From assembly GCA_048886185.1 (NCBI GenBank), contig JBHLKY010000008.1, positions 153,047-185,046 on the forward strand: DNA of 32,000 nt, read 5' to 3'. Below, in pieces: positions 10,405 to 31,081 of this stretch. A program made the translations under genes and the position numbers. This DNA is from Candidatus Hermodarchaeota archaeon (GTDB lineage: Archaea > Asgardarchaeota > Heimdallarchaeia > Hodarchaeales > Hodarchaeaceae). The notes beneath the pieces were generated by a model that made no database searches, had not been told where the DNA came from, and saw only the letters and a program-made list of their open reading frames with translations. How positions within the stretch are numbered: position 1 is the stretch's first letter; every line of letters begins with the position of its first letter.

Positions 10405-10866
10405 TTGAAACGATTTGAAAATGTTGGTTTAGGCGGAACATTTGATCGTTTACACTCTGGACATAGATTATTTCTCGATATAGCTACATATTATGGTGAA
10501 TCTGTTCATATTGGGTTAATTAGTCAAAGTTATTTGAATAAAATACATAAGAATTACAGGGAATCTATTCAAAACTTTCAAATCAGGCGGAAAGAAATTA
10601 AAAGTTTATTAGAGAAACGAAAAGCTCAATATTCTATTTCAACCATAGAAAATCCTGGGATGGACCGGGAATTAGCTAGTGAAGGGAATCTAAATGCTCT
10701 AGTTGTATCACAAGAAACATATTCAGGAGCTTATGTTATTAATCGTCTACGAGCTAGCCAGGGAAAATCAAAGCTTACTATCATTGTAATCCCCCGTGTT
10801 ATTCGTATGAATGGTACACTCGAAAGCAGTACAAGATTAAGAAAAGAGGAACTTGAAAAAAGTTAG
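10405..10866 (+). CDS. coaD: Phosphopantetheine adenylyltransferase (archaeal/eukaryotic type)
   Basis: GGTFDRLHSGH (HxGH), LVVSQET, ESSTRLR; TTG start. Confidence 0.88.
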   Translation: MKRFENVGLGGTFDRLHSGHRLFLDIATYYGESVHIGLISQSYLNKIHKNYRESIQNFQIRRKEIKSLLEKRKAQYSISTIENPGMDRELASEGNLNALVVSQETYSGAYVINRLRASQGKSKLTIIVIPRVIRMNGTLESSTRLRKEELEKS

Positions 10867-10885
10867 GTTTTAAAGAAAAACTATA

Positions 10886-10987
10886 TGGAAGGAGCACCTC
10901 CGAACTCAAGATCTTCATCATTTAAGACATAAATAGATGTATTTTGTGCCTTATCGGGAGGGCTAGAGCCGTCATTGGATCCTTCCA
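10886..10987 (-). ncRNA. Box C/D-like sRNA candidate 2
   Basis: 8-bp terminal stem UGGAAGGA/UCCUUCCA; box C AUGACGG (10975-10969), 11-nt guide, D' CCGA (10957-10954), hairpin UAAGGCA/UGUCUUA, C' AUGAUGA (10921-10915), 12-nt guide, D CGGA (10902-10899). The C/D deviations are compensatory (C-G pair). Confidence 0.65.
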
Positions 10988-11201
10988 ACGTTTTTCATCA
11001 AAAAAGAAAGTTATAAGGTTATCGGTGTTGTGTTTCACAAGAAAAAATAACTTACAAGACTTTAAGCAAAAAGTCCTTTAGTAACATTTAAACAGAGAAG
11101 ATTCAGCCTTATTCAAGAAAACCAACAAGATATAAATTTTAATTCGTTATGAATCTCAAAATATTCCGTACTTCATTAATTTCTATTGACAAGCAACAAG
11201 T

Positions 11202-16163: not shown

Positions 16164-16278
16164 TAATAATATCCTAAATGGAGTTTGAAAGCCTCAGACC
16201 GCTCATCGTTCATCATTAAAAGACTTCTGTTCCCTAAGCTATCATCATAGGCTATTTTATGAGTCATAAATTAGTAAA

Positions 16279-29803: not shown

Positions 29804-31081
29804 ATGAATGGCGGAATCAGTTTGAGTGAAACTAAAGTTTTTAATAGATATTTTGTGATGTTAGGAGCAGTAGTTGCACAACTGTGCCTAGGTTCCATTT
29901 ATGCGTGGACGATCTTTCAGACTGCACTGTTTGAAAATACCCCTTATCAATGGGATAAACTACTCACCCAACTACCTTTTTCAGTTGGGTTAGCCTCCTT
30001 TGCTTTTTTCATGATTTTTGCGGGAAAATGGCAGGACAGGGTTGGCCCAACCAAAGTCGCCACTGTGGGTGGAGTTCTTCTAGGTATTGGATATATCCTA
30101 GCTGGGCTGGTCGATTTTATAGCCACAGGTAATGAATTACTCGGTTTCTTATGGCTTGTTTTATCTTACGGAGTAATTAGTGGAGCAGGCATTGGATTTG
30201 CTTATGTCTGTCCCATTGCAGCATTAGTTAAATGGTTTCCTGATCTTAAAGGTCTAATTACTGGAATAGCTGTGGCTGGATTTGGAGCAGGAGCACTCAT
30301 ATTCACTCAAGTGGAAACAGCTCTCATACCAGAGGATGGTACGGTGGGAACAGCTTTTCTACTTCTTGGATTCCTGTATCTCATTCTTGTTGTGGGATCA
30401 GCTCAGCTTCTACGCAACCCTCCATCGGATTGGACTCCCCCCATACACTTGAAAAAGATATCTCCAAGTCCAACTCCTCAAATGGGATTAGATGTTCAAC
30501 CAAGGGAAATGATTCAAACACCTGAATTTTGGCTACTTTGGGGGATGTTTGTGCTAGCTGCTGCAGCTGGACTAATGACTATTGGAAATGTCAAATCTTT
30601 TGTTCAAATCAAAAATCCAGAAATTGATGCAGTAATGGCAGCAACCATTGCTGGTATCTTAGCAATTTTTAACGCTGCAGGACGTATAGTATGGGGTGCT
30701 ATCTCAGATCGGGTTGGCCGAACTGCTACTATGATTATAATGTTTGCAACTCTTGGGTTGGCAATGTTTTTCTTTGGACTTCAACCAACTAATGCAGATA
30801 TCTTAACACTAACAATAGGCGCTTCTATTATTGGATTCTGTTTTGGTGGTAACTTTGCTCTTTTCCCCTCAGCCACAGCAGACTACTTTGGAACAAAGAA
30901 TATTGGTAGTAACTATGGGTTAGTCTTTACAGCATATGGGGTAGCTGGAGTTCTTGGCCCCTTTCTAGCTGGGATCATGGACTATGGGGAGGCCTTTCCA
31001 CTTCTTGGTTTACTTGCCTTTCTAGCTCTAGGCCTAGCAATTATTACAGAGTTACTAGCACGAAACAAAGCAAGAATTTGA
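29804..31081 (+). CDS. MFS transporter, oxalate/formate antiporter (OFA)-like
   Basis: About 12 TM segments, GSIYAW, GKWQDRVGP, KWFPDLKGL, GRIVWGAISDRVGR, DYFGTKNIGSNYG. Confidence 0.9.
   Translation: MNGGISLSETKVFNRYFVMLGAVVAQLCLGSIYAWTIFQTALFENTPYQWDKLLTQLPFSVGLASFAFFMIFAGKWQDRVGPTKVATVGGVLLGIGYILAGLVDFIATGNELLGFLWLVLSYGVISGAGIGFAYVCPIAALVKWFPDLKGLITGIAVAGFGAGALIFTQVETALIPEDGTVGTAFLLLGFLYLILVVGSAQLLRNPPSDWTPPIHLKKISPSPTPQMGLDVQPREMIQTPEFWLLWGMFVLAAAAGLMTIGNVKSFVQIKNPEIDAVMAATIAGILAIFNAAGRIVWGAISDRVGRTATMIIMFATLGLAMFFFGLQPTNADILTLTIGASIIGFCFGGNFALFPSATADYFGTKNIGSNYGLVFTAYGVAGVLGPFLAGIMDYGEAFPLLGLLAFLALGLAIITELLARNKARI

Follow-up and report, generated by a model that had tools for sequence, protein, structure and literature searches.

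Ribose methylation at position 34 of tRNA-Leu(CAA) and tRNA-Leu(UAA) is carried out in bacteria by TrmL and in eukaryotes by Trm7/FTSJ1, which are protein-only enzymes that use no guide. [quoted passage not shown] We analyzed a 32,000-nucleotide stretch of DNA (the window) located on contig C8 of a Hodarchaeales genome (G000; assembly of 4.84 Mb, 35% GC). Judging from sequence comparison, one element in the window is probably (with a probability of roughly 0.7) a conserved C/D sRNA whose D guide would direct Cm34 formation in tRNA-Leu(CAA) and whose D′ arm would serve as an anchor on a tag in an intron of pre-tRNA-Leu(UAA).

The element was read on the minus strand from 10987 to 10886 and has a box C/D-type RNA architecture with all parts in the expected order. 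The order given by an earlier, sequence-only reading of this DNA (stem, boxes, guides of 11 and 12 nt, and hairpin) was recovered as follows.

11010 to 11025, minus strand: promoter-like block CCGAUAACCUUAUAAC, with TTATAA at −29 to −24 relative to the first terminal-stem base
10977 to 10987, minus strand: 5′ strand of the terminal stem, UGGAAGGAUCC, pairing with 10886 to 10898
10969 to 10975, minus strand: box C, AUGACGG (consensus RUGAUGA)
10958 to 10968, minus strand: D′ guide, CUCUAGCCCUC, 11 nt
10954 to 10957, minus strand: box D′, CCGA
10922 to 10953, minus strand: internal stem-loop between D′ and C′, 32 nt, with a 7-bp base (UAAGGCA/UGUCUUA) and an apical helix
10915 to 10921, minus strand: box C′, AUGAUGA
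10903 to 10914, minus strand: D guide, AGAUCUUGAGUU, 12 nt
10899 to 10902, minus strand: box D, CGGA (consensus CUGA)
10886 to 10898, minus strand: 3′ strand of the terminal stem, GGUGCUCCUUCCA (from sequence, fold, and RNAalifold)
10872 to 10880, minus strand: oligo-T run, TTTTTCTTT, a candidate archaeal termination signal just beyond the 3′ end of the element

The terminal stem pairs without mismatch over its outer 8 bp, and two further C-G pairs abut the boxes. Both the C/D motif and the internal C′/D′ motif expected of an archaeal box C/D sRNA are present, and in each a 3-nt AAU bulge precedes the tandem G·A/A·G pairs, which is the geometry of a kink-turn (K-turn). The guide spacers of 11 and 12 nt fall within the approximately 10 to 13 nt typical of archaeal C/D sRNAs, and the same spacing is found in the main-clade orthologues. 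The element departs from the archaeal pattern in its D′-C′ connector, which is a stem-loop of 32 nt instead of a short K-loop of approximately 3 to 9 nt, and in box C positions 5 and 7 and box D position 2, which are nonconsensus. Rfam yielded no match over the element at the gathering score or at an E value of ≤10, as anticipated by the earlier claim that consensus-based searches would miss it; the nearest match was a partial snoR66 hit (15.9 bits versus a threshold of 43) that lies upstream of box C and merely clips it. The arrangement is more than a chance occurrence: a relaxed scan of the whole genome for the architecture, requiring a closing stem and noncoding DNA, returned only five loci, and the longest stem among them was that of the element. 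The fold energy of the whole element is unremarkable (z of −1.2), as is usual for C/D RNAs. The neighbors of the element, both encoded on the plus strand, are a coaD-type open reading frame (ORF) on one side and the ORF of an M50 peptidase on the other. The coaD-like ORF (10405 to 10866; PF01467; 153 aa; cytidylyltransferase-like) ends 19 nt from the 3′ end of the element, which matches the antisense placement about 20 nt past the coaD stop proposed previously.

Other loci with C/D-like features were seen in the same genome. At 16194 to 16248 of the window, on the minus strand, a compact C/D candidate of canonical appearance (AUGAUGA, 12 nt, CAGA, 9 nt, AUGAUGA, 12 nt, CUGA), closed by a 4-bp stem, occupies the spacer between two minus-strand ORFs; a crude scan gave no clear rRNA target for it. 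Two more C/D-like loci with a long D′-C′ hairpin are located on the minus strand at G000:C19:88050 and G000:C14:88871. At the C19 locus, boxes C and D′ read GUGACGA and CCGA, respectively, and the D′ guide perfectly matches the small-subunit (SSU) rRNA of relatives over 10 nt (CGGUAAAACC). ARAGORN also called a tRNA-Trp with a 255-nt intron at 30275 to 30622 of the window, inside a 425-aa ORF (29804 to 31081), which is probably a false call.

The element is present in 22/22 genomes of the genus. BLAST detected it in 18 other genus genomes at 75 to 95% identity, with a conserved block that coincides with the ends of the element, and three genomes (G018, G001, and G016) carry more diverged copies. 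Column conservation was read from a MAFFT alignment of 21 sequences, which shows no variation in UGA.G (box C), CUCUAGCCCU, UGA.GA (box C′), GAU.UUGAGU, or the terminal A of box D. Box C keeps its U, G, and A together with the position-6 G, and its position 5 is C or U. Box D′ is CCGA, CUGA, or CAGA in 19 of the 21 aligned orthologues, and likewise CCGA in the unaligned G013; only the G001/G016 form departs from its GA. In box D, the G before the invariant A is retained in >90%, and all four bases (G, A, C, and U) occur at position 2. The GA dinucleotides of the boxes are thus nearly invariant, in agreement with the earlier description of tandem G-A pairs in both turns. The D′ guide CUCUAGCCCU is invariant across all 22 genus genomes, and the D guide core GAUCUUGAGU is invariant apart from one C-to-U change in G001/G016. 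The flanks, the hairpin/loop sequence, and the neighboring CoaD protein (37 to 70% identity) diverge far more than the guides do. The diverged form found in G001 (two copies, L099:171-262 and L100:176-267) and G016 (L101:189-280) has CCAA as both box D and box D′, which would swap one sheared A·G pair for A·A; its terminal stem is a different one, its hairpin is GC rich and 21 nt long, and its D′ guide is identical.

In the homologue comparison that had been proposed as a check of the structure, RNAalifold recovers the terminal stem, with G-C/G-U changes plus two A-U to G-C changes. Because of indels, RNAalifold misses the internal hairpin on the MAFFT alignment, so each spacer was folded alone: 21/21 orthologous D′-C′ spacers fold into a hairpin that closes directly on D′ and C′ despite sequence turnover, with shuffle z-scores of −0.8 to −4.4 (mean of about −2.6).

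The pair formed by box C position 5 and box D position 2, usually U·U, is C-G in the window's genome, and it had been interpreted as a compensatory Watson-Crick replacement. That reading describes the element itself, and C-G and U-A clades do exist, but it does not extend to the genus as a whole. Among the 22 orthologues, the pair is C-G in 9, U-A in 5 (one clade, with boxes AUGAUGU/UAGA), C·U in 2, U·C in 2, C·C in 2, C·A in 1, and U·U in 1, so that it is Watson-Crick in 14/22 and non-Watson-Crick in 8/22. So many states indicate a tolerant position and not a maintained Watson-Crick compensation. The 3b·3n-equivalent position of a natural C/D K-turn therefore drifts freely, through C-G, U-A, and mismatches, inside one genus.

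Some 25 nt upstream of the element on the minus strand there is a TATA-like block, whose spacing is shared by most orthologues though the flanks diverge; it reads CUUAUAA or AUUUAAAA, often with CCGAUAA before it, and is merely A-rich in 3 of 23. T-runs follow the 3′ end of the element in most orthologues, and the run in the window may be its terminator. Taken together, the TATA-like block and the trailing T-runs suggest an independent minus-strand transcription unit. The proteins expected to act with such an RNA are all encoded in the genome: fibrillarin (263 bits) and an adjacent Nop-domain protein (Nop5; 222 bits) are on the same contig as the element, and there are two L7Ae-family (PF01248) matches. 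Sequence conservation, the upstream TATA-like block, and the genes for the core proteins support the proposal that the element is a genuine double-K-turn RNA, which L7Ae would be expected to bind.

The sequence-only reading had left both predicted targets unassigned and considered that the RNA might be an orphan guide or act on a non-rRNA target. A genome-wide search located GACUCAAGAUCU within an unannotated tRNA gene, C8:75302-75434, which is tRNA-Leu(CAA), and the predicted D target, AACUCAAGAUCU, is the anticodon arm of this tRNA. The D guide pairs 12/12 with nucleotides 30 to 41, forming 11 Watson-Crick pairs and 1 terminal G·U, and the wobble C34 lies opposite the guide nucleotide five positions upstream of box D (the N+5 position). 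The D guide thus matches a stable RNA with N+5 on a plausible modification site. Only 22 sites in 9.7 Mb (both strands) pair as well with the D guide, so that the placement of N+5 on position 34 of a tRNA is expected at approximately 1e-4. GACUCAAGAUCU is kept in every tRNA-Leu(CAA) anticodon arm that was read (13 genus genomes and G001), whether the gene is intron-free, has a noncanonical intron, or has a 37/38 intron. Within the genus, the guide core differs only by the C-to-U change of G001/G016, which is opposite G37 and leaves pairing intact. At the level of the class, the motif comprising box C′ and the D guide was found in 39/83 genomes and in none of the reversed-pattern controls. Searches with box C and the D′ guide also gave matches in Methanococcoides, Archaeoglobaceae, Thermogladius, and bacteria; these were rejected since the rest of the architecture is missing and their number is below chance.

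The tRNA-Leu(CAA) gene (G000:C8:75302-75434; L043:153-285) was missed by both ARAGORN and the Rfam tRNA model. A noncanonical intron of 45 nt interrupts it in the window's genome, within the 5′ strand of the anticodon stem. G007, G003, and G008 have no intron in this gene, and in G018, G020, and G004 the intron is at 37/38, so the intron position is polymorphic within one genus. ARAGORN and the Rfam tRNA model find only 25 to 32 tRNAs because most genes carry introns, and the tRNA inventory is therefore incomplete.

The D guide also fits tRNA-Leu(UAA), with a G·U at U34 and a terminal mismatch. A G·U at the target nucleotide is usually unfavorable for guided methylation, and Um34 on tRNA-Leu(UAA) is thus uncertain. 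A search for a separate guide with A opposite U34 of this tRNA gave 58 sites, none of which follows a C′ box.

The D′ guide has a candidate partner in the precursor of the same tRNA-Leu(UAA). Intron 1 of the tRNA-Leu(UAA) gene at C3:54060-54222 carries one of the noncoding 8-mer matches to the D′ guide, and the predicted D′ target, GAGGGCUAGAG, has an 8-nt match to a conserved tag in this intron. In the gene aligned from 21 genomes, intron 1 is variable overall, and its best-conserved block is the tag GGGCUAGA, immediately 5′ to a hairpin that shows compensatory changes. The tag is exact in 20/21 genomes, with a mismatching version (GGGCUAAA, one base off) in G020. The orphan designation is accordingly not supported: complement searches place the D guide on tRNA-Leu(CAA) and the D′ guide on the pre-tRNA-Leu(UAA) intron, and in the rRNA sequences of relatives neither guide has a site with fewer than two mismatches. 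Outside the genus, the orthologous sRNAs have D′ guides that resemble that of the genus without being identical to it, and tags were read in the recoverable tRNA-Leu(UAA) genes of the motif-bearing genomes, where the matching tag lies in the 37/38 intron. The guide/tag combinations are as follows.

This genus (f1): D′ guide core UCUAGCCC, tag GGGCUAGA, cognate duplex of 8 to 9 bp
G044 (f3): D′ guide core CUAGCCCUU, tag AAGGGCUAG, cognate duplex of 9 bp
G053 (f3): D′ guide core UCUAACCCUU, tag AAGGGUUAGA, cognate duplex of 10 bp
G037 (f4): D′ guide core UCUGGCCCU, tag AGGGCCAGA, cognate duplex of 9 bp
G067 (f7): D′ guide core GGCCUU (plus U·G), tag AAGGCCG, 6 Watson-Crick pairs and 1 G·U

Across sister families, three different guide/tag base pairs change on both sides, as in CUAACCC/GGGUUAG (G053) and CUGGCCC/GGGCCAG (G037). 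When guides and precursors were cross-tabulated, cognate combinations formed 8 to 10 bp and mismatched combinations at the changed guide/tag (G053 and G037) formed ≤6 bp; guides with the shared CUAGCCC core match each other's precursors. Counterexamples are the two f2 genomes, which lack a convincing tag, and G020 with its mismatching tag base; the f7 duplex is also short. The tag also has 5-nt complementarity to nucleotides 8 to 12 (UAGCC) of its own tRNA, which could contribute to its conservation. Intron 2 of the genus tRNA-Leu(UAA), a short 37/38 intron, starts with AUC in every genome that has it. The AUC repeats exon nucleotides 38 to 40, so that pairing with the D guide is preserved before splicing, consistent with action on the precursor. 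The position of the tag in different introns per family suggests that the pairing matters, and not methylation of a particular intron nucleotide.

The tRNA-Leu(UAA) gene of the window's genome (G000:C3:54060-54222; L207:61-223) has two introns, one in the D-loop region and one at 37/38, and is miscalled by ARAGORN as tRNA-Lys. In several relatives, the 3′ end of tRNA-Leu(UAA) diverges after GGGUUCGAAA or GGGUUCAAAA, which suggests a third intron in the T-loop.

These observations can be assembled into a mechanism in which the sRNA, presumably transcribed independently, would assemble with L7Ae, Nop5, and fibrillarin on two K-turns, the C/D K-turn being closed by the terminal stem and the C′/D′ K-turn by the internal hairpin. 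With the D guide on nucleotides 30 to 41 of tRNA-Leu(CAA), fibrillarin would 2′-O-methylate the wobble C34. The D′ guide would pair with the 8- to 10-nt intron tag of pre-tRNA-Leu(UAA), gaining a second hand-hold by which the ribonucleoprotein would be recruited to the unspliced precursor, and this hold may offset the weaker anticodon duplex, with its G·U at U34, of tRNA-Leu(UAA).

Three other explanations were weighed against the mechanism outlined above. The view that there is no RNA gene at all, and that the conserved block acts on the plus strand as, for example, a terminator or stability hairpin in the 3′ region of coaD, draws on the ability of the terminal stem to form on the plus strand too (z of −1.7) and on the fact that the element follows coaD throughout the genus. 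It is very hard to reconcile with invariant columns that consist of the unpaired guides and the GA dinucleotides of the boxes and not of the stem, with boxes, a TATA-like block, and targets that all read on the minus strand, and with homologous sRNAs of other families that are not beside coaD, and we regard it as highly improbable. A more serious alternative, which we nevertheless consider unlikely, accepts a real Cm34 guide for tRNA-Leu(CAA) and assigns the D′ guide to some other methylation target, such as unassembled rRNA, with an incidental match to the tag. No SSU, large-subunit (LSU), or 5S rRNA is assembled in the window's genome and the rRNA of its relatives is patchy, the D′/tag duplex is short in the genus (8 bp), family f2 lacks a clear tag, and the second guide of tRNA-targeting archaeal sRNAs is often target-less according to reviews (PMC7994747). 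The rRNAs tested in place of the missing ones were the SSU of G002, G016, and G008 and LSU pieces of G001, G005, G008, and G016 that jointly cover nearly the whole molecule; in these three full SSU genes and the LSU pieces, neither guide had a site with fewer than two mismatches. The exact 10-mer target of the D′ guide is also absent from three genomes (G007, G008, and G014) outside the sRNA locus, and an incidental match would not lead one to expect guide and tag to change together at three base pairs, with duplexes at the changed guide/tag falling to ≤6 bp in noncognate combinations. Searches of the SRP RNA and RNase P RNA of the window's genome gave no target, and spliced-junction targets in candidate tRNA genes gave nothing plausible. 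A 9/10 match of the D′ guide to the anticodon/variable region of tRNA-Arg(CCG) was rejected because a C·A mismatch lies beside the N+5 site.

The remaining explanation, which also seems improbable, keeps the RNA and its partners and changes the function: a C/D-type ribonucleoprotein would act chiefly as an RNA chaperone or order-of-events factor that steers the folding or splicing of pre-tRNA-Leu, with methylation secondary or absent. Both arms contact one multi-intron precursor, the AUC start of intron 2 of tRNA-Leu(UAA) preserves the pairing with the D guide before splicing, the boxes are degenerate in one clade (G001/G016), and the location of the tag in different introns per family makes a fixed methylated intron nucleotide unlikely to be the point. 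All of this would fit a chaperone. However, C34 falls exactly at N+5, the same register that a proven methylation guide uses (PMC3413156), the best match of the D guide is tRNA-Leu(CAA), which is tag-free and in some genomes intron-free, and fibrillarin and Nop5 are present. A methylation guide with a second, anchoring arm is therefore the reading that we prefer.

One rRNA gene among those used for the target searches has an unusual length. The SSU rRNA gene of G008 (L022, G008:C9:1695-3919) spans 2,225 nt against a model of 1,478 positions, implying an insertion or intron of approximately 750 nt; two other genus genomes have uninterrupted SSU genes of 1,474 to 1,476 nt.

A broader proposal, for which we see about even odds, is that the tRNA introns of Heimdallarchaeia are handles for the modification machinery, that the seemingly orphan second arm of the tRNA-Leu wobble guide reads a short tag in the pre-tRNA-Leu(UAA) intron, so that one sRNA grips the precursor twice before splicing, and that in Hodarchaeales the tag moved from the 37/38 intron to the D-loop intron and the guide gained an internal stem resembling that of snoRNAs. 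If true, archaeal tRNA introns and orphan C/D guides would gain a selectable function, and the covariation of guide and intron tag offers a testable answer to two questions, namely, what role target-less second guides have and why archaeal tRNA introns persist. A partial literature search found no paper on Asgard C/D sRNAs or on intron tags read by a second guide.

Compared with sR47, which belongs to a different phylum, the element has the same substrate and nucleotide and likewise reaches them with the guide that precedes box D, and the 22-mer substrate used with sR47 (PMC3413156) contains GACUCAAGAUC, the same 11 nt as matched here. The likeness is at the level of guide and target, and convergence on a common target could also have produced the same guide. 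The element differs from sR47 in its nonconsensus boxes (AUGACGG/CGGA), in the 32-nt D′-C′ hairpin that replaces a short loop, and in a second arm with a covarying partner in a tRNA intron. The C/D guide encoded in the pre-tRNA-Trp intron (Haloferax volcanii; Pyrococcus sR50) likewise combines guided 2′-O-methylation of wobble position 34 with an unspliced precursor and the involvement of an intron (PMC7994747); there, the intron itself is the guide, whereas the element is a gene of its own and the tRNA intron contributes only a short tag that pairs with its second arm. TrmL and Trm7/FTSJ1 reach the end point proposed here as stand-alone enzymes without a guide RNA.

A structural parallel is with eukaryotic box C/D snoRNAs, which also have a long D′-C′ spacer closed by a real helix. 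Among orthologous sRNAs, the connector is a hairpin in f1 and in both relatives of f2 (L259 and L260), a family of the same taxonomic order; in the others (L229 to L236 and L261 to L265), it is 4 to 6 nt in f4, f7, and most of f3 and 19 nt in G044 of f3, such that most sister families retain the short archaeal loop. Hodarchaeales are an Asgard lineage often placed closest to eukaryotes, and the element documents in this order a predicted tRNA wobble guide that has nonconsensus K-turn boxes and a snoRNA-like, stem-closed C′/D′ motif. In yeast snoRNAs, a second duplex near the target reportedly strengthens a weak primary guide duplex, a role similar to that envisaged here for the D′ arm. Unlike the eukaryotic snoRNAs, the element resides in an archaeal genome with a single Nop5, would be transcribed from its own promoter, and would act on a tRNA substrate, and its entire second guide would be engaged in the accessory duplex, which involves an intron.
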